A DNA stretch of 64,000 nt, from IMG/VR virus record IMGVR_UViG_3300020465_001196. One strand, written 5' to 3'. How positions within the stretch are numbered: the first letter of the stretch is position 1; the number at the start of each line of letters is the position of its first letter. This document shows, one piece after another, positions 1,183 through 60,100 of this stretch. Below the pieces are notes generated by a model, which had not been told where the DNA came from, ran no database searches, and saw only the letters and a list, made by a program, of their open reading frames with translations. The stretch is from a virus. Taxonomy: Duplodnaviria; Caudoviricetes. The position numbers and the translations under genes are program-made.

Positions 1183-1840
1183 TTATCTTACTCAATGCCT
1201 CCATATTGTTTTTATTTGTTTCGCCATATTCTCTACCAGCAATAGCACCAGCAATTGCATATTCACCAAAGCCTCTATCATTACCAACACTACACCATAT
1301 ATTTAAACGTTGTTCTGTTTCATGATCTTTTTGTTTGTCAATTACTTTTGCCGCTAACTTTGTACATTCTCTAAATGCTGATTTAAAAGTATTAAAAGGA
1401 TCTGTGTTAAATGCTGTAACATTACTAATCGTTGGCATTGCCTTAAATGCTCCTTTTTCTCCAGGCTTATTTGATACTGATGTTGTAAAATCAATTCTCC
1501 ATTCATTTGCAGATCTACAAGTTTCAGTTGGAAATAGTTTAACTCCACCATAACCATATACTAAATCATTTATTGGATTACGGCATCGCCAAACGTGAGT
1601 ACAATGCTCATCCCATTTACTTGGCTTAAAACTAAAATCAAAATCTGGTTCTAGTATTGCATCTGCATCAACTACATAAAAACTTTTTGTATAGGCCAAT
1701 TCTGCACAACGTTTGTGTGCATTAAAAATTCCTTTTACACCTTTTACACGTCTAGCATAAGGAAACTTTTTTACAAGTGATTTCCAAGTTTTATCTGCAT
1801 AAGGCTCTTGGTAACTTAAATGAAATATATCTAGTGCCAT
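1109..1840 (-). CDS. Glycosyltransferase-like (GT-A fold) protein
   Basis: DIFHLSYQEP, GIFNAHKRCA, FYVVDADA (DxD) and YGYGGVKLF motifs typical of marine phage GT-like proteins. Confidence 0.6.
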   Translation of the reverse strand: MALDIFHLSYQEPYADKTWKSLVKKFPYARRVKGVKGIFNAHKRCAELAYTKSFYVVDADAILEPDFDFSFKPSKWDEHCTHVWRCRNPINDLVYGYGGVKLFPTETCRSANEWRIDFTTSVSNKPGEKGAFKAMPTISNVTAFNTDPFNTFKSAFRECTKLAAKVIDKQKDHETEQRLNIWCSVGNDRGFGEYAIAGAIAGREYGETNKNNMEALSKINDFGWLEQQFNKIQISSRDARVIG

Positions 1841-1846
1841 AATACT

Positions 1847-1875
1847 ATTATACTTGTTTTAATCAAAATAATCAA
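1847..1875 (-). promoter_or_regulatory. sigma70-type promoter TTGATT-17-TATAAT, leaderless geometry
   Basis: -35 at 1870-1875, -10 at 1847-1852, 6 nt before ATG at 1840. Confidence 0.7.
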
Positions 1876-2059
1876 GTGGAAATGAATAAAAACCTAATGT
1901 TTCTATGTCAGGATATCTTAATTTTATTAAAACATATTGCTTGTCAGTTACAGCAATAATATCATCTGCATGATTAGGTATGTATGTTCTTGGCAAATTT
2001 TTTTGGTTTGCTAATTCCGAATGCTTTTCGTGATCAAAATATCCAACTAATCTGTACAC
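1859..2059 (-). CDS. Hypothetical protein
   Basis: 66-aa ORF; GTG start overlaps the clpP TAG stop (TAGTG). Confidence 0.55.
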   Translation of the reverse strand: MYRLVGYFDHEKHSELANQKNLPRTYIPNHADDIIAVTDKQYVLIKLRYPDIETLGFYSFPLDYFD

Positions 2060-2640
2060 TATCGTTTTTCAACAATTTTGTCAATTAGGCCAAATTCTAA
2101 TGCTTGATCTGGATTCATATAATTATCACGTTCCATAGCATCTTCAATTGTTTTTAAATCTTTTCCACAATGTTTTACATACAATTCATTTAATCTTTTC
2201 TTTGTATCTAAAATATCTTTTGCATGAATTTCAATATCAGTTGCTTGTCCTTGGAAACCTGCTGATGGTTGGTGTATCATTATTTTTGAATTAGGTAATG
2301 ATATTCTTTTACCGGCTGTACCTGCCATTAATAATAACGATCCTGCACTTGCTGATAATCCAATACTTACTGTTGAAATATCTGGCTTAACATATTGCAT
2401 AGTATCATACATTGCCAACCCTGCTGTAACACTACCTCCTGGCGAGTTAATATACATATAGATATCCTTGTCTTTAGATTCTGATTCTAAAAACAATAAT
2501 TGGGCACATACTAAACTTGCTACTGTATCAGTAATTGGACCAGTTATAAAAATAATTCTTTCTTTTAATAAACGTGAAAAAATATCATAACTTCTTTCAC
2601 CTCTTGACGATTGTTCAACAACCATTGGTACTAGATTCAT
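2059..2640 (-). CDS. clpP: ATP-dependent Clp protease proteolytic subunit
   Basis: [40 protein letters not shown] (Ser), MIHQP (His), ERD (Asp); AAGGAG SD favours start at 2640 (or 2646) rather than 2667. Confidence 0.97.
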
Positions 2641-2650
2641 ATTCATCTCC

Positions 2651-7976: not shown

Positions 7977-9860
7977 TTATTTTTTAACTTCTTCAAAGTC
8001 TGCATCAACAACATTATCGTTGTTTTTAGTATCATTAGAAGTATTTTCTGATGTTTGCTGTTGTTGGTCTTTATACACAGCCTCTCCTAATTTCATTGCA
8101 GATTCAGTTAAAGATTTTACTTTATCATTAATATCTTGATTATTTTCAGATTTTAATGCTTCTTTTAATGCAGTAAGATCATCTTCAACTTTCTTTTTAT
8201 CTTCAACAGATAGTTTGTCGCCGTGTTCTTTAAGAGTTTTTTCAGTAGAATGTACTAATGTATCTGCTTGATTTCTAGTTTCTACTGTTTCTCTTTTTTG
8301 TTTGTCAGCTTCTTTGTTGGCTTCAGCGTCTTTAACCATTTGTTCAATGTCAGCATCACTTAATCCACCTGATGCTTGTATTTGTATCTTCTGTTCTTTG
8401 CCAGTGCCTTTATCTTTTGCACTAACATTTACGATACCATTAGCATCAATATCAAATGTTACTTCAATTTGAGGTACACCTCTTGGTGCAGATGCAATAC
8501 CTACCAAGTCAAAGTTACCTAGTAACTTATTATCAGCGGCCATTTCACGTTCACCTTGCATTACTCTAATAGTAACTGCCGTTTGACCATCATCAGCAGT
8601 TGAGAATACTTGACTTTTCTTTGTTGGAATAGTTGTATTCTTCTCAATTAGCTTCGTGCATACACCTCCAAGTGTTTCAATACCAAGTGATAACGGTGTT
8701 ACATCTAAAAGTAACACATCTTTAACATCACCTTGTAATACACCACCTTGAATTGCGGCTCCAATTGCTACTACTTCATCTGGATTTACACTTTTATTTG
8801 GTTCTTTACCAAAAAAGTCTTGAACTGCTTTTTGAACCTTAGGCATTCTTGTCATACCACCTACAAGAATAACTTCACTAATGTCTCCAGCACTAAATCC
8901 TGAATCTTTTAGAGCTTGTTTACATGGTTGTAAACTTTTATCAACTAAATGATCAACCAATGCTTCAAATTTAGCTCTTGTTAATTTAAGATTTAAATGT
9001 TTTGGTCCAGATTTGTCAGCAGTAATAAATGGTAAACTAATATCTGTTTGTGTTGCAGATGATAATTCACATTTTGCCTTTTCTGCCGCCTCTCTTACAC
9101 GTTGAAGTGCAAGATTATCATTTTTTAGATCTACACCTGAGTCTTTTTTGAACTCTGCTAGTATATAATCTACTAATGCATTGTCAAAATCTTCACCACC
9201 CAATGATGTATCACCATTTGTTGACTTAACTTCAAATACTCCGTCACCTATTTCTAAAATAGAAATATCAAAAGTACCCCCACCTAAGTCATATACAGCA
9301 ACCGTACCAGTTTTTTTCTTATCTAACCCGTAAGCAAGTGCCGCCGCAGTTGGTTCATTCACAATTCTTTCAACTTCAAGTCCTGCAATTTTACCTGCAT
9401 CTTTAGTTGCTTGTCTTTGTGAATCGTTAAAGTACGCAGGAACAGTAATAACCGCTTTAGTTACTTCTTGTCCTAAATACTTTTCTGCTGTTTCTTTCAT
9501 TTTTTGAAGAACGAAAGCCGAAATTTGTGATGGTGAGTATTTTTCGTTGTTAGCTTCTACCCAAGCATCTCCATTTTCCGCCTTTACAATTTTAAATGGT
9601 GATGTCTGTATGTCTTTTTGTACAGAATCTCCATCAAATTTTCTTCCTATTAAACGTTTAGAAGCAAAAACCGTATTAGTAGGATTTGTAACAGCCTGTC
9701 TTTTTGCTGGTGTACCTACTAATTGTTCATCTCCAAACGATACTACAGATGGTGTTGTTCTAGTACCTTCTGCATTTTCTATAACTTTGGCTCCCTTACC
9801 TTCCATAATGGATACGCAAGAGTTTGTTGTACCTAAGTCAATACCAATTATTTTACTCAT
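7977..9860 (-). CDS. dnaK: Hsp70 chaperone DnaK
   Basis: [54 protein letters not shown]-terminal DADFEEV. Confidence 0.99.
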
Positions 9861-10471: not shown

Positions 10472-11524
10472 TTAAATTTCTTGAAATTTATAGCTCTGTC
10501 TGGCCGCATTATCGCCACATTGTTTAAAACACGTAGGATTATAATAGTTTGATTGTTGGCCATTCCAACTTTCATGTAACAAACGACTATAATATTTGTG
10601 TCCTAGTATTTCGTTCCAACTATGATGTTTTAAACTATTCCAATCATCACCAAATTGGTCAATTAACATATGAAAGTATTCGTGTTGTTCAAAATTTTCA
10701 GTAGCAAACCAACAGCATGGCCAAACTTTATAATTCCAATCTATAAACACAGTTTTGTCATGATACATTTTACAAGAAATACTTTTACCTTCTTTTTGAG
10801 TAACTTCAAATTTATCATTATATTTTGTTACTCCTGCTGTTTCTGGATGTTGGAATTTATCAGTTGTTTTTACTTCAAACTCTTTAGTTACTATTTTGCC
10901 TTCTTCTTTGATTTTACTTTTACTAAACCAACTACGATTATTTCGTACGTTTTGTCTTAACACAAATTTAATATCTAATTGCTCTGCTAATTTTTTTGCA
11001 TTATCTATATCATCATAATTATGATCAAAAACTAGGTATTCCCATTTACAAAGTCCCTTTGCTGTTGCATAAGCCGTCATATTTTCAACAACTTTCTTCC
11101 AATTAACATTTACTCTATATAAATGATTTGTATCTTTATAACCATCTACAGAAAAAACTACTAATAGTCGTTGAGATTCATTACTCATTTTTCCCATTTC
11201 TGCAAATGTTTCTTTAGTGTTTGCTCCTGTGTTTGTGTGCATTTCAATCGAACCGCCATTATCTAAAATATATTTTGTAATAGTAACAATATTTTTATTC
11301 ATAAATGGATCATCAACTGTACCACCAAAAATAAATTCTTTATCTGCTATTAGTTCTTTTGGAAATATATTAGAAAATTCTTCCAATGACCATTCAGTTA
11401 TATTTTGTTTTAAAAATGGATGTGTATCACCATCAACTGTACGGATACACCCTGGACATCTTGCGTTACACTTATTTGTAATTTCGACATCGAACTTTGT
11501 TATGTTATTAATACTAAATGACAT
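10472..11524 (-). CDS. Radical SAM protein with C-terminal SPASM/twitch-like Cys domain (paralogue 1)
   Basis: CNARCPGC (CxxxCxxC), FGGTVDDP, FSVDG..NHLYRVNV.W, C-terminal ISC..VWPCCW..CFKQC. Confidence 0.9.
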   Translation of the reverse strand: MSFSINNITKFDVEITNKCNARCPGCIRTVDGDTHPFLKQNITEWSLEEFSNIFPKELIADKEFIFGGTVDDPFMNKNIVTITKYILDNGGSIEMHTNTGANTKETFAEMGKMSNESQRLLVVFSVDGYKDTNHLYRVNVNWKKVVENMTAYATAKGLCKWEYLVFDHNYDDIDNAKKLAEQLDIKFVLRQNVRNNRSWFSKSKIKEEGKIVTKEFEVKTTDKFQHPETAGVTKYNDKFEVTQKEGKSISCKMYHDKTVFIDWNYKVWPCCWFATENFEQHEYFHMLIDQFGDDWNSLKHHSWNEILGHKYYSRLLHESWNGQQSNYYNPTCFKQCGDNAARQSYKFQEI

Positions 11525-11528
11525 AGTA

Positions 11529-11762
11529 TCAATATTTATCGGATACTAATGATACTTCTTTTCCTGGTCCAGCTTTACTTGGTAAATCGCCAAATTCTTT
11601 AATATACAATTTAAGTACTTCTTTGTAAAAAATTGTTGAATCATGATTACATTTTTTATTAATTTCAGCCAGTCCATTATTTGTAGGTTCTAGATAACTT
11701 GCTAATACTTTTGCCGCTTCTGTTTGTAGTGTACGTAAATCTAATGTTTCTAAATCAATCAT
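11529..11762 (-). CDS. Hypothetical protein
   Basis: 77-aa ORF, closely packed in the operon. Confidence 0.55.
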   Translation of the reverse strand: MIDLETLDLRTLQTEAAKVLASYLEPTNNGLAEINKKCNHDSTIFYKEVLKLYIKEFGDLPSKAGPGKEVSLVSDKY

Positions 11763-12062: not shown

Positions 12063-12139
12063 TGGCGGAGTGTAAGGGACTCGAACCCTCAACCTCCCGC
12101 GTGACAGGCGGGTGCTCTAACCAATTGAGCTAACACTCC
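12063..12139 (-). tRNA. tRNA-Asp(GTC)
   Basis: GGAGTGTTAGCTCAATTGGTTAGAGC...CCCGC-CTGTCAC-GCGGG...GGTTCGAGTCC...CTCCGCCA; encoded CCA. Confidence 0.97.
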
Positions 12140-12140
12140 A

Positions 12141-12216
12141 TGGTGGGTAGTAAAGGACTCGAACCTTTGACCCCCTCGGTGTAAACGAGGTGCTCTACCA
12201 ACTGAGCTAACCACCC
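12141..12216 (-). tRNA. tRNA-Val(TAC)
   Basis: GGGTGGTTAGCTCAGTTGGTAGAGC...CCTCG-TTTACAC-CGAGG...GGTTCGAGTCC...CCCACCA. Confidence 0.97.
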
Positions 12217-12217
12217 A

Positions 12218-12294
12218 TGGTAGGCGATATAAGACTCGAACTTATGACCTTTCCGTTATCAACGGAATGCTCTAACCAACTGAGCTAATCGCCT
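12218..12294 (-). tRNA. tRNA-Ile(GAT)
   Basis: AGGCGATTAGCTCAGTTGGTTAGAGC...TTCCG-TTGATAA-CGGAA...AGTTCGAGTCT...CGCCTACCA. Confidence 0.96.
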
Positions 12295-12664
12295 ATAGTT
12301 CAATCTCTGTTAAGCCACGTTCTCTATTTAAAAACTTATACTCTACTTTAACAGGATCAAATTGTTTAATTTCTTCAAATATAACATCTGTTGGAAGTTC
12401 GCCACAAGTGTAAACATCAAGTTGTAATAAACCTGGATCTGTTTCATCCCAACAATGTAATGCTATATGTGATGTTTCGATAATTACCAAACCAGTTAAA
12501 CCTCTGTTGCCTGGCATATCTAAATATGTTGTAATAGGTCCTTGGCATATTTGCATACCAATTTTTGACACTAATTCTGTTAACCAAGTGTGAGCCCACT
12601 TTTGATTAGTAGGTGGCTTTTTAACTTCAGCCCTTACGATTAGATGTTTGTGTTGTACTGTCAT
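12293..12664 (-). CDS. speD: S-adenosylmethionine decarboxylase proenzyme
   Basis: HKHLIV, GLTGLVIIETSHIALHCWDE (pyruvoyl-forming Ser in TSH), LDVYTCG. Confidence 0.88.
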   Translation of the reverse strand: MTVQHKHLIVRAEVKKPPTNQKWAHTWLTELVSKIGMQICQGPITTYLDMPGNRGLTGLVIIETSHIALHCWDETDPGLLQLDVYTCGELPTDVIFEEIKQFDPVKVEYKFLNRERGLTEIEL

Positions 12665-13379
12665 TTTTAAATACCGGTATTGGTTCCATTTTATGTAAAT
12701 TTGGTTTCCTTATCTTTTGATATTTATCGTAATATTCACTGTCTGGTCCATGTACCATTGCGTGTTCCATTTGCTCATATGACAGTCCATGTAGTTGATC
12801 TTTATCTGTTCTACCATCTTCCCACAAACCATCTGTAGGTTCAGCATCTATAATTTCTTGCAATACACCAAGATCTTTACCTAGTTGCCAAACTTCAGAT
12901 TTCATTAAATCTGCTATTGGAGAAATATCAACACCACCATCTCCATACTTTGTATAAAATCCTACTCCAAAATCTTCAACTTTATTTCCTGTGCCAACAA
13001 CAATACCTTTTTTAGCACTAGATATTTGATGTAGTGTAACCATTCTTAATCTTGATTTTGAATTTGCAAATGCCAGTTCACTACCATATTCATTAAATAG
13101 TTCTAACCAAAACTTATCGTAGACTTTATCTAAATCAATTATGTCGTGCTTTACATTATTAAACTTTTGTTCTAGCCATTCACCGTGTGCTATACTTAAA
13201 TCATGTTGTGATTCTATTTGTGCTATTGGCATTGAAATTGCATAAACAGGTAATTTTGTTTTTGCACATAAGGTACTTACTACTGCTGAATCTATTCCGC
13301 CTGATATTCCTACAACTAAAGACTTTCTATTATGAGCCAAGGCGTAGTCCTTGATCCACTTCGAAATCTTATCAATCAT
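12627..13379 (-). CDS. nadE: NH3-dependent NAD+ synthetase
   Basis: VVGISGGIDSAV, ANSKSRLRM, VVGTGNKVED..GFYTKYGDGGVDISPIADLMKSEV, PTDGLW; likely start at 13379. Confidence 0.95.
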   Translation of the reverse strand: MIDKISKWIKDYALAHNRKSLVVGISGGIDSAVVSTLCAKTKLPVYAISMPIAQIESQHDLSIAHGEWLEQKFNNVKHDIIDLDKVYDKFWLELFNEYGSELAFANSKSRLRMVTLHQISSAKKGIVVGTGNKVEDFGVGFYTKYGDGGVDISPIADLMKSEVWQLGKDLGVLQEIIDAEPTDGLWEDGRTDKDQLHGLSYEQMEHAMVHGPDSEYYDKYQKIRKPNLHKMEPIPVFKNDSTTQTSNRKG

Positions 13380-13383
13380 GATA

Positions 13384-13707
13384 CTAACGTCTGCTTCGTT
13401 TAGGAGGTAATCCAAGCTCTTCTAATTTTCTATCTCTTCGAGCTCTTCTTATCGCGGCTTTTTTCGCTACTCTTTTCTTTTCAGAAGGTTTAACGTAATA
13501 TTTTCTATCACGAAGTTCTTGCATTATTCCTTCTTTCATTAGCATTTTTTTAAGACGTCTAATTGCTTTTTCAACATTATTGTCTTGAACTGCTACTGCC
13601 ATTCCTGGAAGTTTTTCGTATCTTGGTTTCTTATCTTTCCATTTTGGCTTATCGCTTTGAAATTTGCCGATTTCAAATGTTTTTCTTGGTTTTGAGTTAT
13701 ACTTCAT
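13384..13707 (-). CDS. rpsU: Ribosomal protein bS21 with basic N-terminal extension
   Basis: VQDNNVEKAIRRLKKMLMKEGIMQELRDRKYYVKPSEKKR core preceded by about 35 extra residues. Confidence 0.9.
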   Translation of the reverse strand: MKYNSKPRKTFEIGKFQSDKPKWKDKKPRYEKLPGMAVAVQDNNVEKAIRRLKKMLMKEGIMQELRDRKYYVKPSEKKRVAKKAAIRRARRDRKLEELGLPPKRSRR

Positions 13708-13713
13708 ATTATT

Positions 13714-13741
13714 ATAATAACATCATTTAGATTATTGTCAA
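13714..13741 (-). promoter_or_regulatory. sigma70-type promoter TTGACA-16-TATTAT, leaderless geometry for rpsU
   Basis: -35 at 13736-13741, -10 at 13714-13719, 6 nt before ATG at 13707. Confidence 0.7.
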
Positions 13742-14292
13742 GCATTTTTTTTATCAATTGCTTTAGTAACTGTAGCAATAATTTTATTACCAAATTGTTT
13801 TGGAGGCGAATCAAACTTACCTTGATTTAATTGGCCAGAAATCATAAGTTTAAACTGATCTATAAATATTGGTCCGTTACCAATTTCTCTTCCTCTAAGT
13901 TTCATAACCATTTTAACTTTATCACCATCATCAATAAATTCTTGCACTTTTTTTAATTTAACATTTAGATCATGAACATCTGTTCCAGGACGTAATTGTA
14001 CTTCATGTAAATCAATACGATTTTCTCTTTCTTTTTTCTTTTTTTCTTTATCTGCTTTTTGTTTTTCGTAATTCCATTTACCAAAATCCATAACACGACA
14101 AACTGGTGGATCTGCCTTTTGAGCAATACAAATTAAATCTAGCCCTGCTTCTCTTGCCTTTTGCTGTGCTTCTTGATTCCTTACTATTCCTATAAAATCA
14201 CCATTTGGATCAATTAACCTAATAGTAGGAAAAGTGATTGCAGAATTTAATAAAACAGATGGTTTATTTTTTTTAAAAAATGGTTTTCTCAC
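13738..14292 (-). CDS. infC: Translation initiation factor IF-3
   Basis: IRLIDPNG..IGIV..EA..A..GLDLICI...PPVCRVMDFGKWNYE; HEVQLRPGTDVHDLNVK; GDKVK..LRGRE; GTG start. Confidence 0.93.
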   Translation of the reverse strand: MRKPFFKKNKPSVLLNSAITFPTIRLIDPNGDFIGIVRNQEAQQKAREAGLDLICIAQKADPPVCRVMDFGKWNYEKQKADKEKKKKERENRIDLHEVQLRPGTDVHDLNVKLKKVQEFIDDGDKVKMVMKLRGREIGNGPIFIDQFKLMISGQLNQGKFDSPPKQFGNKIIATVTKAIDKKNA

Positions 14293-15545: not shown

Positions 15546-15820
15546 TATTTTTCTTTCTTTGTTGAGCAAAGAGATGAACATACCTCATCGCAATTGTTTT
15601 TATCATTCCAATGTTTTTCATTAAAATGTTCCGTAAATGCCTTATGTTTTAAAATTTTTTCTAAAGAATGTTTTTTTAAACTATTCCAATTTTCTTCTAA
15701 CTTACTCAAGTACTTACTTCTTTCTTCAGGAAATGCTTCCCTAGTTAACAAATAACAGCAAGGATAAACTTTGTTATCATAGTCAATAATAATACCTTTT
15801 GACTGACATTTAATTGCCAT
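15545..15820 (-). CDS. Stand-alone SPASM/twitch-like Cys domain (C-terminal part of split radical SAM)
   Basis: IKC...[12 protein letters not shown]...[15 protein letters not shown]...CDEVC matches the C-termini of the other three rSAM paralogues; start 15820 (ATG) or 15829 (TTG). Confidence 0.75.
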
Positions 15821-18249: not shown

Positions 18250-18269
18250 AGTATTATTTATGTTAAAAT

Positions 18270-19715: not shown

Positions 19716-19742
19716 ATGTTTCTCCTGTTTCTAACGGCAGAG

Positions 19743-19772
19743 TGTTTTGTGAGGGTTGACGTTGAGTCCTCA
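19743..19772 (-). promoter_or_regulatory. Candidate preQ1-I-like hairpin/pseudoknot in queD leader
   Basis: UGAGG-ACUCAACGUCAAC-CCUCA-CAAAACA between promoter and AGGAG SD; only partly matches the consensus. Confidence 0.35.
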
Positions 19773-19801
19773 TATGCAAAGTGCGTTGTATCATAATGTA
19801 T

Positions 19802-42476: not shown

Positions 42477-42641
42477 TTACCACTGTCCTTTTTTTAATTG
42501 CTCTTTTGTAACTCTATATGGAATTTTTTCAATTACTCCGCCTTTTGCATAAAATTTCTTCCACATATTTTTCTTTGTTTCTTCTTTTGCTTTTATATCA
42601 TCTGGCAAATCAGCAGTATAATCTCTTTTTATTTCTTTCAT
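42477..42641 (-). CDS. Small hypothetical protein missed by the ORF track (54 aa)
   Basis: MKEIKRDYTADLP...FYAKGGVIEKIPY...KGQW*; TTGTAA-17-TAATAT promoter 6 nt upstream. Confidence 0.65.
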   Translation of the reverse strand: MKEIKRDYTADLPDDIKAKEETKKNMWKKFYAKGGVIEKIPYRVTKEQLKKGQW

Positions 42642-42650
42642 AATTATATA

Positions 42651-45079: not shown

Positions 45080-45114
45080 GCTTATATATTATAACAAAAC
45101 TAACAAAAAGTCAA

Positions 45115-47057: not shown

Positions 47058-47129
47058 ATTACAAATCTTCCCTCAAATTATATGTATATTTATGTTGCTA
47101 AATAGAATTAAAGCAAGTATAATAGAGTG

Positions 47130-47501
47130 ATGGATTACAACGAACTTACAGACAAATTTCCCTTTTTATCATGTATAAAACATGGTACTACTGAATATGT
47201 TGGTATTATGCAAAATCAAGATGATTTTGTAACCAGTATGTATGTATATGATATTATAGATAATGAAGATCAAAAACGTGAATTTTTACGTTTAGGCGAT
47301 ACATGGTGGTGGGAATCAAATAGAGTAATACCTATCAATATATTTTTAGCAGGTGATTTTAGTAAGTTTCAAAATTGTTTAAAAACCTTTACGACAAAAG
47401 ATGTAAAATTAGTATTTGGTCCAGTTACTAGTTTAAACAATATTATTAGGAAACGTATTAAAAGACGTCAAATTCAATTAGTTAAAAAGACTGATAATTA
47501 A
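47130..47501 (+). CDS. Conserved phage hypothetical protein
   Basis: TWWWESNRVIPINIFL; TTGCTA-17-TATAAT (47095-47123) 6 nt before ATG at 47130. Confidence 0.7.
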   Translation: MDYNELTDKFPFLSCIKHGTTEYVGIMQNQDDFVTSMYVYDIIDNEDQKREFLRLGDTWWWESNRVIPINIFLAGDFSKFQNCLKTFTTKDVKLVFGPVTSLNNIIRKRIKRRQIQLVKKTDN

Positions 47502-49642: not shown

Positions 49643-50142
49643 TATAGCAAGTCTCCTACTTGAATTTGATCTGGTATTTGGTTTAATTCTTTTGCAAAAA
49701 ATACGCAACTTGGCTTATTTCCTGCTTTTACTGGCATTGTTAATACGTGACCATTCTTAAGTTTTGGAAAATACCATTTTACTTCTTGAAATACATTTAC
49801 TATTTTAACTTCTTTAAACTCGTGTGTATAGCCTGAAAATGGATTATGTACAAATGCTTCAAATCCTCTATCATTTAAACTTGTAAGTGGAACCATTTCA
49901 CAAATACCAAGCTCTTTTTCACCAACCATTATACTCCAATCCATTGGCATTTCAATTTGTTGTCCACCAATATCAAGAATTACTGCTGGTGCGTTAAATG
50001 ATTCTAAAAATATTAATGGAATATAAAAATAATCTAATGCTTTTGGATTTGTACAATCTAAAACACAGTATTGTAAGTCATCAACTTCATTTGGTACTGC
50101 ATTTAAATCATATGTTACGTTTTCAACTGTTAATATGTTCAT
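49642..50142 (-). CDS. Conserved phage hypothetical protein downstream of uvsW
   Basis: 166 aa, beta-rich, ATGA coupling. Confidence 0.65.
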   Translation of the reverse strand: MNILTVENVTYDLNAVPNEVDDLQYCVLDCTNPKALDYFYIPLIFLESFNAPAVILDIGGQQIEMPMDWSIMVGEKELGICEMVPLTSLNDRGFEAFVHNPFSGYTHEFKEVKIVNVFQEVKWYFPKLKNGHVLTMPVKAGNKPSCVFFAKELNQIPDQIQVGDLL

Positions 50143-51593
50143 ATTGTTGCCTTTTCTATTGTAAAAGGATAGTTTGCTTCTTTATAAAATTTCTTTCTAG
50201 TAGTCAAATGCCGTTTTGAAAATTTACACGTTGACGTTATATCCCATATTTCTACATGATCTTTATCTTCTGCTTTACGTATACCTCTACCTATTGATTG
50301 TATAACTCTTACAAAAGATTTTCCTGGTTCTAATAATACCAAATTAAATATTCTTGGTAAATTAATACCTACTGCCGCTACACCATAGGTAGCAATAATA
50401 ACTTTATGTTGTTCTGTTGCAATACTATCGTATTCTTCTTCTCTATCTTCCATTTTTGTTCTACCTTGAACAAAAACTGACCCTACTATTAGTTCTTCCA
50501 ACAATTGTCCAGACTTAATTCTATCAACAAGTATTAAAGTATTTCCTTCTGCTCTAATTTTATCAATTAAATCTGATATAAACTCTAATCTTTGTGGATT
50601 AGTTACTAAATGTGTTTGCTCATTTGCATAATTACTAAATGCTTGAGTATCTTGTGTCTGTATAATGTTTACATGGCATTGTGCAAGTACTCCTTTGTCT
50701 TGCAATTCACTTGCTGACAATTTATTAATAACTTCTCCTAGACTTGCTTGTAATGATGCCATCTCATAATCTTCTTTTGGAATAGTACCTGTAAGTCCCC
50801 AACGTATAGGAACGTTAGCAAATGGACCCGTTAATAGTGTTTTAAGCACGTCTGCTTTAGCCTGATGTACTTCATCTACCATAATGCATACCACGTCTTG
50901 CAAAAAGTCACCTATGTTTACTTCTGCTTCAAACTTTTTAGTTTTTTTAAACATAACATTAAGACTTTGCCAAGTACAAATTGTATGCTTTTTATCAAAC
51001 TCTTTTCGCTCACCATAATATACACCAACATCTAATCCAAGTGTTTTGTAATCACTTTCTGTTTGTGATACTAATGATTTATTTGGAACAATAACAATTG
51101 ACCTACCATATGGTTGAACCAATTGAGATAGTGTTGCTGTTATAAGTGTTTTACCTGCCCCAGTTGCAATTTCTTGCAAACATTGTGGTTGTTCTAAAAA
51201 TTTATTAATTGTTTCTACTTGATAATCTCTTAAAACAATTGGCTGTCCAGCCAGTGGATGTTTTGGTCCCCAAGTTTTATCAAAATGTAAACTTTCGTCA
51301 ATTAATTGAAACTGAAAATCATGTGGTGTTCTATTATCTTCAATATCAACTTCATAATCTTGTTCTTCAATAATTGGTAACACTTTATCAAGCAAATTTA
51401 AATATGTTCTTCCTCCAATATCACAAAAACGAATATTACCATCCCATCTACCTAACTTATATGCTGGTAAATGATATGCATATGGTAAAAAGTATTTTAG
51501 TTTATCAGAAATTTTACGTCTAGTAATAACATCCAGGCCTTCAAATCTGACATTCACTTCATCTTTAATAATTAATTTTGTAATCTTAGACAT
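50139..51593 (-). CDS. uvsW: SF2 DNA helicase UvsW-like
   Basis: EIATGAGKT, MVDEVH, GLTGT, QSIGRGIR; leaderless promoter TTGCAT-17-TATTAT (51628-51600). Confidence 0.92.
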   Translation of the reverse strand: MSKITKLIIKDEVNVRFEGLDVITRRKISDKLKYFLPYAYHLPAYKLGRWDGNIRFCDIGGRTYLNLLDKVLPIIEEQDYEVDIEDNRTPHDFQFQLIDESLHFDKTWGPKHPLAGQPIVLRDYQVETINKFLEQPQCLQEIATGAGKTLITATLSQLVQPYGRSIVIVPNKSLVSQTESDYKTLGLDVGVYYGERKEFDKKHTICTWQSLNVMFKKTKKFEAEVNIGDFLQDVVCIMVDEVHQAKADVLKTLLTGPFANVPIRWGLTGTIPKEDYEMASLQASLGEVINKLSASELQDKGVLAQCHVNIIQTQDTQAFSNYANEQTHLVTNPQRLEFISDLIDKIRAEGNTLILVDRIKSGQLLEELIVGSVFVQGRTKMEDREEEYDSIATEQHKVIIATYGVAAVGINLPRIFNLVLLEPGKSFVRVIQSIGRGIRKAEDKDHVEIWDITSTCKFSKRHLTTRKKFYKEANYPFTIEKATI

Positions 51594-51629
51594 ATCTATA
51601 TAATAACTTATTTGTTGTTGAAATGCAAC

Positions 51630-52244: not shown

Positions 52245-52300
52245 AGTATACTATAGCATATTTATAAGTTTTGTCAATAGTTTTTAGCATAAATAAAAGT

Positions 52301-53154: not shown

Positions 53155-53396
53155 TAATAATCCTCATTTTCATCTTCGCTATATGGATCATCTTCTTCCA
53201 TTTCTCCAAAGACTTCATTATATGCTTCATGTAAATGACTAGATGAAGAAAAAACTTCTCTCCAATCTTGTTCATCTGCCCCATACTCGTCAATAATATT
53301 GACATAGGCAACTGCCGCATCAAGTCTATCTTTTGCTGGAACATAATTTTTTAATTTATTCCATGCTTCAATTAGTACTTGAATTTCTTCTGTCAT
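53154..53396 (-). CDS. Hypothetical protein
   Basis: 80 aa acidic, TAATG coupling on both sides. Confidence 0.65.
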   Translation of the reverse strand: MTEEIQVLIEAWNKLKNYVPAKDRLDAAVAYVNIIDEYGADEQDWREVFSSSSHLHEAYNEVFGEMEEDDPYSEDENEDY

Positions 53397-54457
53397 TACG
53401 CCTCCGCCTCAGCAGGTTCTTGTGCTTCAACTTCATGTGCATTCCATTCAGCCATAACCATATCAAGAGTTTCACCTGTCCAATCTTTTCTATAGTGTTT
53501 ATGTTCTTTACCTAAACGGTCAACATACTTTAATCTATTGCCGTCTTTAACAAGTAAACCTTTTTTCTCACATAAATCAACAAGTCCACTATATGGATCC
53601 ATTCCTGATTCATATGGAATTTTAACTTGTACTGCTTCAAAAGGTTTTGCAAATCTAGTTTTCATAACCTTAACAGCAGATCTAATTCCAGTAACATTTG
53701 ATATTTTATTACCTGCTTCATCTTCTTTAAGTTTTAGTTTTTTCATTGCGATCACAATTGAACTTGCATATACAAATCCTTGTCCACCTGATATTTTATC
53801 ATCTGGATCAAACATATCTTGTGATGCGTATGTGTGGTTAGTTGCTACTAATCCAATGTTTAACTCTGCAAACATATTAACACAATTTCTTACAAGTGCT
53901 GTTAAGGCTTTAGGTTTTCTACCCATATCACCTTTCATATCACCCTTCATAAATTGATCTCTGTCTGTTGGTGTTAGTAACATACCTAATGAATCTATAA
54001 CAAACATAACTTTTGGTCTTTCACTTACATCTAAAGATCCATAGTCTGCTCTATATGTTGTTACAAAATCTGATATTGTTTTTGCTACATCATCAATCAT
54101 TGCAACATTAATACGCATTAACTTATCTGGTGATGTATCAACTTCCAATGCTTGTAGCCAACTTTCATCTAATGCATTTTCAGAATCAAATACAATACAA
54201 AATATTCCTTGCTTCTGTGCATTTTTAATAATATTACCAGATGCAATCAAACTCTTACCAGAACCTGATTCTCCTGCTAACATTGTTACTCTACCTAGTG
54301 GTATTCCTTTATTAAAATCTCCACTAATCAAATAGTTTAGACAGTAGTTTCCTGTGTCTACCCAATCAACTGGATCAGATTCAAAGCCAACAGAAATTCC
54401 ACCAATGCTTTTAGTTACTGACTTTCTAAACTTACTAACGTCAAATGGTCTTACCAT
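53396..54457 (-). CDS. uvsX: RecA-like recombinase UvsX
   Basis: LAGESGSGKS, FDSENAL, VIDSLG, TNHTY, SGGQG; start MVRPF at 54457 after AGGAG. Confidence 0.95.
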   Translation of the reverse strand: MVRPFDVSKFRKSVTKSIGGISVGFESDPVDWVDTGNYCLNYLISGDFNKGIPLGRVTMLAGESGSGKSLIASGNIIKNAQKQGIFCIVFDSENALDESWLQALEVDTSPDKLMRINVAMIDDVAKTISDFVTTYRADYGSLDVSERPKVMFVIDSLGMLLTPTDRDQFMKGDMKGDMGRKPKALTALVRNCVNMFAELNIGLVATNHTYASQDMFDPDDKISGGQGFVYASSIVIAMKKLKLKEDEAGNKISNVTGIRSAVKVMKTRFAKPFEAVQVKIPYESGMDPYSGLVDLCEKKGLLVKDGNRLKYVDRLGKEHKHYRKDWTGETLDMVMAEWNAHEVEAQEPAEAEA

Positions 54458-54474
54458 AAATTTCTCCTTGTTAA

Positions 54475-54502
54475 TATAGTGCATAGTTGCCTATGCACTA
54501 TA
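54475..54502 (-). promoter_or_regulatory. Perfect 12-bp hairpin with GCAA tetraloop between gp32 and uvsX
   Basis: TATAGTGCATAG (54475-54486) / CTATGCACTATA (54491-54502); no U-tract. Confidence 0.7.
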
Positions 54503-54511: not shown

Positions 54512-55525
54512 TTATTTGTTTTGTCTTGATCTAATCATTGCTAAAATATCTTCAGCTGATGCTTTAGAACCATCTGTTGCTGTTGCAGTTGCAGTTGCCA
54601 CTTCTGGCTGTGCCACTGGTGCAGTTGCAGTTTCAACAACTGGTGCCGCAGGTGCTACTGGAGCCACTGGTGCTGTTTCAACAACTGGTGCCGCTGGCGC
54701 CGTTGTTGTAGTTGTTGTACTTGTAGTTTTTGGTGATGATGCCATTCCATTTGGTCTATAATGTTGACCAAATCTACTTTCATCATATAATTCACCATCT
54801 ACAGATGCTTTAAACATTTCTGCGATAATTTTAACATCTTCCGCAGAAGGTTTCTTAGGAAGATAATCACCAAGATTGTATAATCCATTAGTGTTAACTG
54901 CTTGACGTTCACTATCTTGTAATGCTCTTTCTTTGAAAGACCAAGATGATGTTGAATAATCAGCATAACCACCTTTAGTTGTTTTAGTTAATTTAAACTC
55001 TCTACCTTTATCTAAATCAGTTGGAAGATCTTCCATTTCTGGATTCATCAATGCTGATCTAATAATGTTAAAGATAGACGGATTAATTACAAAACGTCTA
55101 ATTGGATTTTCTGGAGTTGTATCTTCATCTAATGGAGAGTTTACAACGAAACCTTGGAAAATGTAACTTCTTTTTTTCCAATATTTTCTACCCATATCTT
55201 CCAATTGTGGATCTTTAAACCATGGACGAATTTCACTTAATACTGGACATGGTTCTCCCCACATCTCCATACAAGGAACTTGTACAATAGTTGGTTTAGC
55301 TTCTGACTGACCTTTAATACCAGCAAATGGTAATTTGATCATTTGTCTTTCAACCCAAAAGAAAGTATTGTTTGGATCTTTGTCTGCTAAAAATCTTAGT
55401 GTTGCTGTTGTGCCTTCAGGAATATTCCAGAACGGATAAATTGCGTTGTCGCCTCCTGAACTATTTGGTGAACGTTTTACTTCTTGTTCTTGAAGTTTTG
55501 CTCTAATTTGTGCTAGTGTTGCCAT
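54512..55525 (-). CDS. Single-stranded DNA-binding protein (gp32-like)
   Basis: IYPFWN, LRFLADKD, CMEMWGEPCPV, YWKKRSY, GYADYSTS; A/T/P linker and conserved C-terminal helix. Confidence 0.9.
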   Translation of the reverse strand: MATLAQIRAKLQEQEVKRSPNSSGGDNAIYPFWNIPEGTTATLRFLADKDPNNTFFWVERQMIKLPFAGIKGQSEAKPTIVQVPCMEMWGEPCPVLSEIRPWFKDPQLEDMGRKYWKKRSYIFQGFVVNSPLDEDTTPENPIRRFVINPSIFNIIRSALMNPEMEDLPTDLDKGREFKLTKTTKGGYADYSTSSWSFKERALQDSERQAVNTNGLYNLGDYLPKKPSAEDVKIIAEMFKASVDGELYDESRFGQHYRPNGMASSPKTTSTTTTTTAPAAPVVETAPVAPVAPAAPVVETATAPVAQPEVATATATATDGSKASAEDILAMIRSRQNK

Positions 55526-55694: not shown

Positions 55695-57839
55695 TTAAAG
55701 ACCTGCTAGATCTTTAATTCTTTTAATATCTTCTGGAGTTTCTGTTTCTTCAGAAGTTTCATTTAAATTGAAACCGGCTTTATCTAAAGCGTCAACAGTA
55801 GCATCTCTATCTGCCATTGTATGAATAACTACGCCACCCTGTCTTGCTTCGTCTGGCTCGCATTGTGATTTGATTCCAGCTTTCATCAATGCAAGTTCAA
55901 TGTCACCACAATCTTTATCGCTTATGCCTCTATCTTGATCCCAATCACCATCTAATGATACTTGGTGTGCGTGTGCTTCTGATTGTCCTTCATGTCCACT
56001 TGCTTCTGTAGTGTCTTCAGTTTTTTCATTTGCTAGTTCGTCAGCAATAGCATTTAACCAACTTGGCTCTGATGGATGTCTGTCGCCATCTGATACATCA
56101 GCATAACCAATTCCGTCAGCTTCTTTTCTTAACATTGCAATAATTTCTTCTTTTGATTTTCCTGCGTATAAACTTTTAGGATCTTGAATATCACTCATTA
56201 CTGCATCTTTGTATTCTTCATAATCATGTAAATCTGCAAATCTTTCTGAATCTAAATCTGCTTGAGTCATTGGCTCTTCTTGCATACCTCTGTATGCTTT
56301 CCATTCTTTTGAAAACTTAACGTGTTGGTCACCACTAATTCCTAATGCACCTCTTTCGATGCCTTTAACTTGTTTTAACCATTTATCGTAACTTAATTGT
56401 CTGTTTACATCTTTACCAATGTAAGACATTACATTTTTAAATGCTCTATCTACTGAACCATCTTTTTTTACTGCTGGTTCACCTTCTGCAAATGAATCGT
56501 CTGTACCAAAATCTTTTACTGCTTCTTCTATTTCGTCAACTACATTTGGAACAGTTTCTTCATTTGGTGTAACATCTTTCATTTTTGACATAGCAATAAT
56601 TTGTTTTGCTAAATCCATTTCTTGTCTTGTTGGTCTTGGTTCATATTTGCTTCTATGCATATGACCAACTTTATCAGAAAGTCTTGAAAGGAAAACACTC
56701 ATTTCATCGTCTTTAATTTTGCCTGCCATGTCTGCTAGTTTAAAAGATATTGCACTTGCGTTATCTTTAAATGCACCAACTTGTTCTGGATCATAATCTG
56801 TTTTTGCAGGAGATAATAATTCAACTGGTTCACCTGATTGTAATTTTTGTGAAATTCTTTGCATCATTGCGTCTGTTGAATTGTCTTGCTCTGCTTTTGC
56901 TTCATCCATAATTGATTGTAATAATGGAAGTACGTCACTAATTTTTTCATCAAATTTAGTAACTGTAAATTTGTTTTTTAAATCTTCTAATGCTTCAATG
57001 CTGTAATCTGATGCTTCAGCTTTTTTATAACTTTCAACAAAATCTGTATAACCACCTGCTGTTGTTAATTTATGAATTTGTGATTTTACATTAATAATTT
57101 TGTTATCTACTAACGGTAAAATATCTGCCGCTTGTTCTTGTACTTGGCTAAAACGTCTTGCATATTTTGTAACTTCTTTTAATTTTGCTAATGTTCCTGA
57201 TAACTCAACAATTGCTTCACCTACTTCGTCATGTGGTTTACCACCTGCGTGTACGTGTCTTGCCATTGCTCTAGCACCATTTAAATGAATGTGTGGATAT
57301 TTAAATCTTTCACCTTCTGAAGTTTCAATAAAAATACCTTGAATATTTCTTGATCTAGCACCTCTGCTAGTTTCGTCAACTGCTTTATTGTGTCTTACGA
57401 TCACTTTTACACCCTCAAGTTTTTGTTCACTTGTTTTTGTTGACCCTTGTAACGGTGTATATCCTTCTGTTGTAACGTCTGCCATTTGTGTACCTTTATT
57501 CTGTTCAACCTTCCAAGCATAATTTTTTGGCTTTAATTCTTTACCAAACTGCCTATGGTCAAAATCAAGCATATAACCTTTTGCTAAATGCTTTATGTTA
57601 TTTATAATACTTTTTAAATTTGTAGCCACATTATCGTTAGTACCCTCGTGAAACTTAATTTCGCCAGTTTCATCGTCAATATTAACCATATAATTTGGGT
57701 TTTTTACATAAAAATAACGTGATTTTGATGGATCTACAGTTTCATCACCAGTAGTTGAGTCATACATTTTTACATCATGCCCACTACCTTTGATAACTTT
57801 AAAAACTTTATCTGAAACTATGTCAAAATTTACTGCCAT
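55695..57839 (-). CDS. Large acidic protein, probable virion/head component
   Basis: 714 aa near terminase; GATAAATA 5 nt before ATG; no catalytic motif recognised. Confidence 0.6.
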   Translation of the reverse strand: MAVNFDIVSDKVFKVIKGSGHDVKMYDSTTGDETVDPSKSRYFYVKNPNYMVNIDDETGEIKFHEGTNDNVATNLKSIINNIKHLAKGYMLDFDHRQFGKELKPKNYAWKVEQNKGTQMADVTTEGYTPLQGSTKTSEQKLEGVKVIVRHNKAVDETSRGARSRNIQGIFIETSEGERFKYPHIHLNGARAMARHVHAGGKPHDEVGEAIVELSGTLAKLKEVTKYARRFSQVQEQAADILPLVDNKIINVKSQIHKLTTAGGYTDFVESYKKAEASDYSIEALEDLKNKFTVTKFDEKISDVLPLLQSIMDEAKAEQDNSTDAMMQRISQKLQSGEPVELLSPAKTDYDPEQVGAFKDNASAISFKLADMAGKIKDDEMSVFLSRLSDKVGHMHRSKYEPRPTRQEMDLAKQIIAMSKMKDVTPNEETVPNVVDEIEEAVKDFGTDDSFAEGEPAVKKDGSVDRAFKNVMSYIGKDVNRQLSYDKWLKQVKGIERGALGISGDQHVKFSKEWKAYRGMQEEPMTQADLDSERFADLHDYEEYKDAVMSDIQDPKSLYAGKSKEEIIAMLRKEADGIGYADVSDGDRHPSEPSWLNAIADELANEKTEDTTEASGHEGQSEAHAHQVSLDGDWDQDRGISDKDCGDIELALMKAGIKSQCEPDEARQGGVVIHTMADRDATVDALDKAGFNLNETSEETETPEDIKRIKDLAGL

Positions 57840-57858
57840 ACTAATATTTATCCTTTAA

Positions 57859-58467
57859 TTACCAATATATTCTTCCCATGTGACTTACCCTATTAAACTG
57901 GGTATTTTGCTCAGGAACAGAGTGGTAACTTTTATTGGTATTTATATAAGCAAAAAATGTTCCAGGATAACAAGGAATTTGCTTTATTTTTTCCCATCCA
58001 TTTATATCATCATCCCATCCACCATGTAACCAAACACCACTTTGTGGATATTGATCAGTATCAGGCAAGTATAATTGCCAAGTTAAACAATTTCTATAAT
58101 CTGTGTTCATTTTTTTATTAGTGTTAGGAAGACAATGCATATCTGTATGTGCTGGTAAACTTGCTCCTTGTGTATGCCACGTATTTGTTTGAGTTGCTAG
58201 ATAGTTAATTGGTAATATATGTTCAAATTTTTCTACAATTACTTTACAAAAATTTTCACTATTAAAATATTCAAAGTTTTCTATGTTATGTGCAACTTTA
58301 ACAAAGCCTTTCATATCAGGATGTTCATCATGTTTCCAATCAAAATTACTTTGCAATTTTTTACTTAATGTAATTGCATTTTCAGTACTAATATAATTTT
58401 CAATTATAATATGATCCCATGGATCTTTTTCAACCTTTGTATTTTTTAACGTATCTAAACTAAACAT
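57859..58467 (-). CDS. 2OG-Fe(II) oxygenase-like protein
   Basis: PWDHIIIENY, LPAHTD (HxD), LTWQLYL, SYHSV, NRVS. Confidence 0.75.
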   Translation of the reverse strand: MFSLDTLKNTKVEKDPWDHIIIENYISTENAITLSKKLQSNFDWKHDEHPDMKGFVKVAHNIENFEYFNSENFCKVIVEKFEHILPINYLATQTNTWHTQGASLPAHTDMHCLPNTNKKMNTDYRNCLTWQLYLPDTDQYPQSGVWLHGGWDDDINGWEKIKQIPCYPGTFFAYINTNKSYHSVPEQNTQFNRVSHMGRIYW

Positions 58468-58469
58468 TT

Positions 58470-60071
58470 TTATCCAATCGATATTGGCATTGGGTCTCTA
58501 TAATCGTCATCATTATCATCAAGTGTTGCACCTAATGACTCTTCCATTGTTGCGTCATATCTTGTTAGGAAATCAGTCATACGTATTACTAATAATAATG
58601 CGGCTACTAAATCATCATGCTCACCTGATTTAGCAGAAAAACTATTTCCTTTAGCAACATAAACTTTTAATTCTCTTATTAATGGTTTAGATGATAATGT
58701 AATTCTATCTGTCTCTACCCATGCTTTTAATTTTGTACAAGCAGTAACTTTTGATTTGTTTGTTGTGTTATAACCTTTACGCACTTGTCTACGTTGTTGA
58801 CCACCTTTACGTGGTTCATGTAAAAAGAATCCAGGAAATTTATCTTCGCCCATTTCATCAATAGTTACGATTGCCGCTTCACCAAGTGTATTATTTTCTA
58901 CAGTCCAATATATTTCTGGATTAGGTGTACCTAGCTCACGTAACTGTTGATCTATTTCTTTTAGTATGCTATGCATTATTCTAACTTGTCCCTGGATTGG
59001 AGTTTTGTTATGTTGCCATTCTGCAACTTGTTTAAAATCTGGTAAACTAAAAACTTGTATTGCGGCAAAGTCGCCACCTGTACCTAAACAAGGATCTAAT
59101 CCTATAACATAAGTACTACCTTTTTTAATTTTATCATACCAACGTACTTGACCGTGTTTTACCATAGGCTGTGTACCTTGTAGTGTAATTAATTTTAATC
59201 CATCAATAAGTGTTTCATCAAATGCGATAAATTCACATTCATGCTCACGTCTAAATCTTTCTTCACCAATACGTTGTCTTTCTTCTTTAGCCCAAACTTC
59301 ATCACGTTCTGGATGTTGACTCCAGTGGACAAAAGTTGGTCTAAAACCATTAAGCCCTACTTCTGCTGGATTTCCATATTCGTCTTGTAACTTATTAGCA
59401 CCACGCCAAAGTTGTGCAAATAAATCATCATCATTATTTGGTGTAGATGTAATTACACATTTACCACCTGTTGACAATGTTGGAGATAATGAAGTCCAAA
59501 ATTCTTTTGCTTTGTTTTGTGGTTCAACGAACGCAAACTCATCCATATATATCATTGATATAGACATACCACGTCCTGTTGTTTCTGTGGTTGTTTGTGC
59601 TATAATTCTTGACCCATTATCAAAATCCATTGACCCTTTATTATAACTTGTTACTCCACACCTAATATAATCTGGACATTCTTCATATGCAAATCTTACA
59701 CGTTGCATAATATCTTGTGCACCTTGATATTTGTGTGCCGCAATTAATATTAATGTATCTGGATGAAACATTGCATACCATAATAGGTATCCTGCCGCAC
59801 AGGTTGTTTTACCTGTTTGCCTTGCACACATGGCAATACTAAATCTATAACCATTGTATGCTTCTAATAATTCTTCTTGAAAAGGATAAGGTTTAAATTT
59901 CATACGACCTTTTGTTGGATGTTGTATCCACATATACTTTTTCATCCAATACATATAACCATTTTCTAAATCAGCACAACTTTTTAATTCTCTTATTTGT
60001 TTTGCTGTATATTTGGTTTTGGCGTATGCCTTTTTGACAAGATTGCCTTCTAATACTTTACTACGTGCCAT
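58470..60071 (-). CDS. Terminase large subunit (gp17-like)
   Basis: ARQTGKTT Walker A, YMDEFAF Walker B, ITSTPN, IGLDP, GEHDDLV. Confidence 0.96.
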   Translation of the reverse strand: MARSKVLEGNLVKKAYAKTKYTAKQIRELKSCADLENGYMYWMKKYMWIQHPTKGRMKFKPYPFQEELLEAYNGYRFSIAMCARQTGKTTCAAGYLLWYAMFHPDTLILIAAHKYQGAQDIMQRVRFAYEECPDYIRCGVTSYNKGSMDFDNGSRIIAQTTTETTGRGMSISMIYMDEFAFVEPQNKAKEFWTSLSPTLSTGGKCVITSTPNNDDDLFAQLWRGANKLQDEYGNPAEVGLNGFRPTFVHWSQHPERDEVWAKEERQRIGEERFRREHECEFIAFDETLIDGLKLITLQGTQPMVKHGQVRWYDKIKKGSTYVIGLDPCLGTGGDFAAIQVFSLPDFKQVAEWQHNKTPIQGQVRIMHSILKEIDQQLRELGTPNPEIYWTVENNTLGEAAIVTIDEMGEDKFPGFFLHEPRKGGQQRRQVRKGYNTTNKSKVTACTKLKAWVETDRITLSSKPLIRELKVYVAKGNSFSAKSGEHDDLVAALLLVIRMTDFLTRYDATMEESLGATLDDNDDDYRDPMPISIG

Positions 60072-60100
60072 ACTTGTATTTATGCTAATTAAATGCGTAC

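Follow-up and report, generated by a model that had tools for sequence, protein, structure and literature searches.

A conserved layout, predicted to give leaderless mRNAs, at two types of promoter in a clade of marine jumbo phages that probably infect SAR11

Leaderless translation is usually regarded as rare and inefficient in Proteobacteria, and the familiar examples in phages are single genes such as lambda cI. In the known leaderless mRNAs, including lambda cI transcribed from PRM and transcripts of Mycobacterium and Caulobacter (PMC10491246, PMC4633059, PMC8459731), the first transcribed nucleotide (+1) is the A of the AUG, no Shine-Dalgarno (SD) sequence is present and the start codon is strictly AUG. 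One review remarks that phage transcripts are 'often leaderless' (PMC5312081). Phage phiKZ has no leaderless transcripts, and the leaders of AR9 measure 26-491 nucleotides (nt). Here we describe a layout of the leaderless kind in the virus record IMGVR_UViG_3300020465_001196, analysed as a stretch of 64,000 nt (the window), in which promoters end so close to the next ATG that +1 is predicted to coincide with its A. The layout resembles the known leaderless mRNAs in its predicted +1, its lack of SD sequences and its strict use of AUG. It differs from them in covering about 20 of the 87 window genes, in using two promoter types (sigma70 and T4-late) and in being conserved across a clade, and its start sites are predicted and not mapped. 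No description of such a layout was found in the literature on PA5oct, phiKZ, AR9, phages encoding the ribosomal protein bS21, marine jumbo phages or pelagiphage transcriptomes.

The window comes from the genome, about 330 kb long, of a marine jumbo phage with PA5oct, Atu_ph07 and the Rak2-like phages among its relatives. Its terminase, UvsW-like helicase and gene order match those of PA5oct, Atu_ph07, Phosso and the Rak2-like group. Its close relatives in IMG/VR include a complete genome of 328,149 bp with terminal repeats (G001), whose primase is 91% identical, and a deeper marine clade is also present there, with primase identity of only about 40%. The G+C content is 31-32% and the minus strand carries nearly every gene. 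Pfam confirms bS21, initiation factor 3 (IF3), L11, CspA, DnaK, Hsp20, NrdB, the UvsW-like helicase, a Toprim primase and a ferredoxin. The cultured relatives PA5oct, Serratia phage BF, Atu_ph07 and Phosso share with the window phage the core genes, the gene order, TTGAC/TATAAT early promoters, ATAAATA late motifs and a ClpX-bS21 or ClpX-IF3 cassette, and PA5oct depends on the host RNA polymerase and uses TTGAC/TATAATA promoters (PMC7318152). The late motifs also resemble the late promoters of T4, which have the motif TATAAATA and are read by gp55 together with gp33 and the sliding clamp: the core is the same, and a purine stands at the sixth nt after it. A putative gp55-like open reading frame (ORF) is present in G001. 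As for the translation genes, the phages of freshwater Bacteroidetes that encode bS21 (PMC9723584) likewise have large genomes, and there too bS21 was proposed to bias initiation towards phage mRNAs. They belong to another clade with another host and carry bS21 in the structural module, and the text of that paper does not contain 'leaderless', 'promoter' or 'initiation factor'.

The spacing between promoter and start codon was compared at the 87 gene starts of the window and in 2000 dinucleotide shuffles. The sigma70 pattern TTGNNN-N16-18-TANNNT-N5-7 was found at 12 gene starts (shuffle mean 0.38, shuffle maximum 3), and TAAATA-N5 at six (mean 0.24, maximum 3). The close spacing on which the original prediction was built, from the letters of the window alone, is thus enriched over shuffled controls. 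Among the sigma70 sites the offset is 6 nt in ten cases and 5 nt in two; among the late sites it is 5 nt in six and 8 nt in three. On the minus strand, 10 of 61 TTGAC words have the ATG of an ORF of at least 50 amino acids (aa) at a distance of 33-35 nt, seven of them at exactly 35 nt, and the other offsets from 20 to 49 nt are almost empty. In G001 the design is estimated to extend to 50-60 transcription units.

All 16 sites that had been listed beforehand were confirmed when read back, and five more were found. The sigma70-type sites pair a TTGACA-like -35 with a TATAAT-like -10 box 16-18 bp away, from which promoter activity is predicted, and the late sites carry the T4-type core motif (TATAAATA-like). 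Unless stated otherwise the sites are on the minus strand. With 6 nt between the -10 box and the ATG, the following were read: TTGATT-17-TATAAT (1841-1875), ahead of ATG 1840 of a 243-aa gene with no assigned function (1109-1840), kept in G001 and in a further relative, G002; TTGACA-16-TATTAT (13708-13741), ahead of ATG 13707 of bS21 (13384-13707, 107 aa); TTGACT-17-TAATAT (24701-24735), ahead of ATG 24700 of a gene with no assigned function (24209-24700); and TTGACA-16-TATAAT (29603-29636), ahead of ATG 29602 of nrdB (28505-29602), which is kept in G001 and G002 and is SD-led in the relatives G003 and G004. The same 6 nt follow TTGACT-17-TATACT (34122-34156), ahead of ATG 34121 of a PD-(D/E)XK exonuclease-like gene (33420-34121), which is leaderless in G003 and G004 too and has a spacing of 7 nt in PA5oct; TTGTAA-17-TAATAT (42642-42676), ahead of ATG 42641 of a 54-aa gene (42477-42641); TTGACT-17-TAATAT (45080-45114), ahead of ATG 45079 of the Toprim primase (44090-45079); TTGCTA-17-TATAAT on the plus strand (47095-47129), ahead of ATG 47130 of a phrog_11637 gene (47130-47501); and TTGCAT-17-TATTAT (51594-51628), ahead of ATG 51593 of the UvsW-like helicase (50139-51593), a site conserved in distant relatives. 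The distance is 5 nt at TTGACT-18-TATTAT (26022-26056), ahead of ATG 26021 of the ferredoxin (25659-26021), and 8 nt at TTGCAA-17-TATAAT (36149-36185), one of the additional sites, ahead of ATG 36148 of the gene 35420-36148.

The late sites of the original prediction carry NATAAATA 5 nt ahead of the ATG. They comprise CATAAATA at 18250-18262, ahead of ATG 18249 of a 464-aa membrane protein (5 nt in G001, 8 nt in G002); GATAAATA at 36604-36616, ahead of ATG 36603 (gene 36163-36603); GATAAATA at 57840-57852, ahead of ATG 57839 of a 714-aa virion structural protein; and CATAAATA at 60072-60084, ahead of ATG 60071 of the large terminase (58470-60071). Both promoter types meet in a divergent region of 56 bp (52245-52300), where TTGACA-16-TATAGT on the minus strand ends 5 nt ahead of ATG 52244 of a glucosaminidase and CATAAATA on the plus strand lies 5 nt ahead of ATG 52301. 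The additional late sites are GTTAAATA at 60350-60362, 5 nt ahead of ATG 60349 (gene 60101-60349), and three with the spacing TAAATA-N8, namely GATAAATA at 11525-11540, 8 nt ahead of ATG 11524 of a radical SAM gene with a predicted leader of 3 nt, and those ahead of 37765 and 62763. Both radical SAM genes of the window (10472-11524 and 36608-37765) have this rarer spacing. The N8 class has 11 members in G001, and there is almost none at 6 or 7 nt. A consensus promoter was also seen at 19716-19830, where TTGACA-17-TATTAT is followed after 7 nt by the ATG of a 30-codon ORF that overlaps the SD sequence and the beginning of the gene that follows (19715). A hairpin can be formed there by the spacer of this promoter with the bases transcribed first, and the element is possibly either a regulatory leader or an upstream ORF of the leaderless kind.

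The start codons themselves fit this layout. All 18 leaderless-type genes start with ATG, as compared with GTG or TTG in 15 of the 69 other genes. The median duplex energy with the anti-SD sequence over the upstream 18 nt is +0.45 kcal/mol for the leaderless-type genes and -4.9 kcal/mol for the others. Translation from SD-led starts further inside the leaderless-type genes was considered and rejected, because no such in-frame start lies within 45 codons downstream. The ferredoxin begins (MTYYV..) 7 residues ahead of its first cluster cysteine, a beginning typical of ferredoxins of the FdxA type, and the N-terminus of the glucosaminidase is a signal peptide; both fit the 5'-most ATG. The alignment of UvsW with the PA5oct and BF proteins begins at residue 1. 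These alignments and start contexts indicate that the start codons of the leaderless-type genes are correct.

Transcription usually starts at the seventh nt after the -10 hexamer and at the sixth nt after the T4 late core. By this geometry, +1 is predicted to fall on the A of the ATG at the leaderless-type sites. A pyrimidine stands at -1 in 15 of the 18 leaderless-type genes and in 30 of the 69 others (p = 0.003). At the N8 late sites of G001, the sixth nt past TAAATA is a purine in 11 of 11 and the fifth a pyrimidine in 10 of 11. For late promoters with leaders (15-40 nt to the ATG), the count of purines at the sixth nt is 38 of 46 in the marine clade and 78 of 93 in PA5oct, BF and Atu_ph07 together, and therefore +1 is placed without reference to the ATG. 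Geometry and base preferences thus predict a 5'-terminal AUG at N5 sites and a leader of 3 nt at N8 sites. No gp55, the T4-type late sigma factor, was found in the window. A tblastn search with T4 gp55 returned a gp55-like ORF at E 8e-5 in G001 and matched PA5oct more weakly, at E 0.004.

The layout is conserved in the marine relatives. The primase promoter, TTGACA-17-TAnnAT-6-ATG, was found in 34 of the 34 relatives in which the 5' end is present, down to 38% identity, with spacers that vary in sequence. UvsW and the exonuclease keep the leaderless spacing in the distant marine clade. The distance is thus preserved in relatives whose proteins are only about 40% identical and whose promoter sequences have diverged. 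G001 retains 17 of 18 window sites. In the fragments G003 and G004, TTGAC lies 35 nt ahead of an ATG four times each, and TAAATA-N5 is found eight and five times, respectively. The bS21 promoter is kept in G001, has a spacing of 6-9 nt in G002 depending on how the -10 box is read, and is replaced by an SD leader in G003 and G004.

The phage has two initiation classes. One has 5-8 nt from promoter to ATG and no SD sequence; the other has about 17-48 nt and an SD sequence, with the duplex energies given above. The strong SD sequences that the original prediction had ascribed to the second class are present at dnaK, hsp20, csp and rplK, but the RecA/UvsX-like gene (53396-54484), assigned to the same class, has a weak SD-like leader, and queD and gp32 were not located. 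Another member of the SD-led class is 54512-55525, the gene covered most deeply in the metatranscriptomes. Among the strong sigma70-type promoters that stand ahead of ORF starts in G001, 15 lie at 6 nt and 28 at 4-9 nt, with a broad second group at 17-48 nt, and none was found in the reversed-sequence control. The motif ATAAATA lies 5 nt ahead of an ATG 12-13 times and 8 nt ahead 7-8 times, and a third group at 18-27 nt has SD sequences. Leaderless-type and SD-led members occur in both the early and the late class of promoters.

Transcript evidence consists of contigs assembled from four marine metatranscriptome runs in which the phage is present, and from such contigs 5' ends cannot be placed. 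These RNA libraries contain contigs identical to the window. One of them (56805-58158) crosses the site at 57839, and thus read-through transcripts, or DNA in the library, exist. Such a contig would be expected if the motifs were not working start sites and the genes were translated from read-through transcripts, with the AT-rich promoter-like sequence acting as an SD-independent landing site of the S1 type. The position of several promoters 4-14 nt from the upstream gene or within it agrees with this idea, as does a probable host that initiates mostly without SD sequences. It seems very improbable nevertheless. Canonical -35 and -10 hexamers stand 16-18 nt apart, at a distance from the ATG that is precise to the single nucleotide, and a pyrimidine at -1 with a purine at +1 is a signature of transcription, not of translation. 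The same TAAATA with a purine at position 6 is also found 20-30 nt upstream of SD-led genes. Moreover, the primase operon has coverage, and directly upstream of the primase promoter the depth is zero.

In three cultured phages of the lineage the layout is missing. PA5oct, BF and Atu_ph07 show no leaderless spacing peak and have their late motifs 20-35 nt upstream, and the counterparts of uvsW, primase and terminase carry SD leaders; in PA5oct only the exonuclease and the primase look leaderless-like. In T4 and Syn9 the late motif was never found at 11 nt or less from an ATG but lies about 17-33 nt before it with an SD leader, whereas about half of the late motifs of the window phage lie at 5 or 8 nt. 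These comparisons bear on the possibility that the design is a mere by-product of genome packing, in which leaderless translation is tolerated and has no host-related or regulatory role. The intergenic gaps at the leaderless sites are indeed only 4-56 nt and hold little besides the promoter, and the genes concerned mostly encode enzymes and low-copy proteins, while the chaperones and the most deeply covered gene keep SD sequences. However, PA5oct, BF, Atu_ph07, T4 and Syn9 are equally compact and keep leaders of 20-35 nt. The spacing is exact to the nucleotide across deep divergence, and the second late class is longer by exactly 3 nt, with no continuum. Packing as the sole cause is therefore doubtful, the more so as an unrelated phage has the late version too.

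This phage is HTVC008M (NC_020484), a cultured T4-like SAR11 phage of the Kyanoviridae, known as a pelagiphage that encodes bS21. TAAATA-N5-ATG was found in it at 12 genes, many of which are late structural ones, e.g. at 6280, 7562, 11972, 18943, 19456 and 49760, and seven of seven checked matches are annotated gene starts, including those of the head closure, tail tube cap, DNA end protector and tape measure proteins. No description of this layout in HTVC008M was found in the literature searched. HTVC008M is like the window phage in its late leaderless layout, in a bS21 that is 59% identical over the core and in a similar G+C content. It is unlike it in belonging to an unrelated lineage with a 147-kb genome, no IF3, no sigma70-type leaderless peak and a bS21 without extension. 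In Mosig, which also infects SAR11, 11 matches to the pattern were found as compared with 3 in the control.

The host of the window phage is probably SAR11 (Pelagibacterales), since DnaK (7977-9860) is nearest to Pelagibacteraceae proteins (75-77% identity, as compared with 71-74% for other Alphaproteobacteria) and bS21 is closest to the bS21 of the pelagiphages HTVC008M and Mosig. If so, the phage is a jumbo pelagiphage of about 330 kb; no description of a jumbo pelagiphage was found in the literature searched. An SD-like 4-mer occurs in the ribosome-binding window of 20% of SAR11 genes (background 8%), as compared with 42-49% in the phages.

According to the original prediction, the phage IF3 and an N-terminally extended bS21 would retune the ribosome and thereby switch or balance the translation of the leaderless and the SD-led mRNAs of the phage. 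The IF3 of E. coli antagonises leaderless initiation, and its bS21 aids pairing with SD sequences. The two genes are adjacent in a cassette, clpX-infC-rpsU, which was found in every marine relative examined, including the distant clade, and the order ClpX then bS21 is also seen in PA5oct. In the window the conserved cassette (12293-15581) comprises clpX, infC, rpsU, NAD synthase and S-adenosylmethionine decarboxylase genes. The IF3 gene (infC, 13738-14292, minus strand) lies directly behind clpX (14292-15581) and is SD-led with a GTG start. This GTG is shared by G001 and G002 and replaced by ATG in the distant marine clade; infC of E. coli uses a rare start codon for autoregulation. Both Pfam domains of the window IF3 score above cut-off (IF3_N 91.8 bits, IF3_C 62.6 bits). 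The protein was supposed to be divergent, but it looks canonical against E. coli IF3 (E 7.5e-33; residues 15-144 aligned, covering the linker, the whole N domain and the beginning of the C domain) and its core motifs are conserved, so that an unusual variant was rejected on sequence. The supposed extension of bS21 is real, with the Ribosomal_S21 domain (65.5 bits, cut-off 27) at residues 38-90 of 107 aa. The identity to SAR11 proteins is 35% for IF3, 38% for bS21 and 77% for DnaK, and IF3 and bS21 are old phage genes.

The distribution of these genes among phages makes a switch of this kind quite unlikely. IF3 occurs without the design in BF and Atu_ph07 (it is also encoded by Phosso; spacing was profiled in the first two only) and is absent from HTVC008M, which has the late layout, so the proposed role of IF3 finds no support. 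If it acted like E. coli IF3, extra IF3 would oppose the leaderless genes of the phage itself. Nor do the promoters agree with a simple temporal switch, because the early and the late ones each have leaderless and SD-led members. For bS21 the outcome is mixed. It is encoded without the design by PA5oct and Atu_ph07, it is SD-led in G003 and G004, and its N-terminal extension, from 0 aa in HTVC008M and SAR11 to about 40 aa in the window subclade, where it is longest, does not track the design. On the other hand, bS21 has a leaderless-type promoter in the window subclade, and every genome with the design, including HTVC008M and Mosig, encodes bS21. Judged from these genomes, bS21 is not sufficient for the design, but no genome with the design was seen to do without it; a modulatory role may be retained, since bS21 accompanies the design in every case.

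Other translation genes were noted in the window. The region 20272-23316 encodes a full-length EF-G (689 aa, all five Pfam domains) adjoining CspA and the ribosomal protein L11. A TATAAATA motif precedes the EF-G gene, whose 24-nt leader lacks a clear SD sequence. EF-G and L11 are 65% and 63% identical to SAR11 proteins, respectively; both genes are in G001 and absent from PA5oct, BF, Atu_ph07 and HTVC008M. No ribosome-recycling factor to accompany EF-G and IF3 was found in five phage genomes. Four tRNA genes are present at 12063-12294 and 26852-26941 (Asp-GTC, Val-TAC and Ile-GAT in tandem, plus Ser-TGA). Leadered late motifs precede the genes of a PAAR-motif protein (27855-28145) and of a protein that has the N-terminal domain of a major tropism determinant (Mtd_N; 32128-33399).

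Taken together, these features establish a conserved, clade-wide promoter layout of the leaderless type that uses two promoter types and that probably reflects life in an SD-poor, streamlined host. The sequences themselves show the geometry, its enrichment, its conservation and the genomes in which it occurs; where transcription starts, how the mRNAs are translated, which host is infected and why the layout was selected are inferred. The best overall explanation, to which we give a probability of roughly 0.72, is that the layout of the marine clade is an adaptation to an SD-poor host, probably SAR11, and independent of the phage IF3. In this mechanism a third to a half of the promoters of the phage and its marine clade would set the start of RNA polymerase on the A of the first AUG. 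The early promoters would be of the host sigma70 type (TTGACA, 16-18 nt, TAnnnT, 5-6 nt), and the late promoters of the T4 type (TAAATA plus 5 nt) would be read with a gp55-like phage sigma factor, a second late class with 8 nt giving a 3-nt leader. With +1 on the A of the AUG, the first cistron would be translated as a leaderless mRNA without an SD sequence, presumably by ribosomes that bind the 5'-terminal AUG directly. Downstream cistrons and a second set of promoter-proximal genes (dnaK, csp, rplK and 54512-55525) would keep leaders of about 20-30 nt with strong SD sequences. The layout would have arisen within the marine clade when these genes lost the leaders that are still present on their counterparts in cultured relatives, as an adaptation to an SD-poor streamlined host together with tight genome packing. 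An adaptation to the host is suggested because the layout is also found at late genes of the unrelated HTVC008M. IF3, bS21, EF-G and L11 would more likely form a general kit that raises translation capacity.

Several observations weigh against this explanation. The gp55 match is weak and comes from G001, not from the window. The 5' ends of transcripts were not seen, and a contig crosses one of the promoters. The host assignment by DnaK has a small margin over other Alphaproteobacteria. In 400 kb of one SAR11 genome, no sharp TTGAC or -10 peak was found ahead of ATGs; a weak TATAAT bump is present at 5-9 nt in this sample, but at its 29% G+C words like the -10 box are so frequent that the bump decides nothing. 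Melnitz, which infects the OM43 host, is equivocal, with 5 pattern matches and 3 in the control, and the link to the host is supported by only two to three SAR11 phages.

More speculatively, the jumbo clade and the HTVC008M/Mosig group, as two unrelated lineages of SAR11 phages that all encode bS21, might have converged on leaderless mRNAs because the SAR11 ribosome is unusually good at initiating on a 5' AUG (70S-type initiation). Phage bS21, joined in the jumbo clade by IF3, EF-G and L11, might then reshape a small ribosome pool so that both classes of phage mRNA outcompete host mRNAs. This extension is tentative and improbable as a whole.

A whole phage clade, probably living on the most abundant marine bacteria, thus appears to make a third to a half of its transcription units leaderless, with promoters of the host type as well as the phage type. 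If the start sites are confirmed, the start-codon and promoter annotation of these phages could be corrected. The phages would also provide a natural system for competition between leaderless and SD-led mRNAs, which could be tested in culture because HTVC008M and Mosig grow on Pelagibacter HTCC1062. If true, phage bS21, IF3, EF-G and L11 would be recast as parts of a translation strategy in ribosome-poor hosts.

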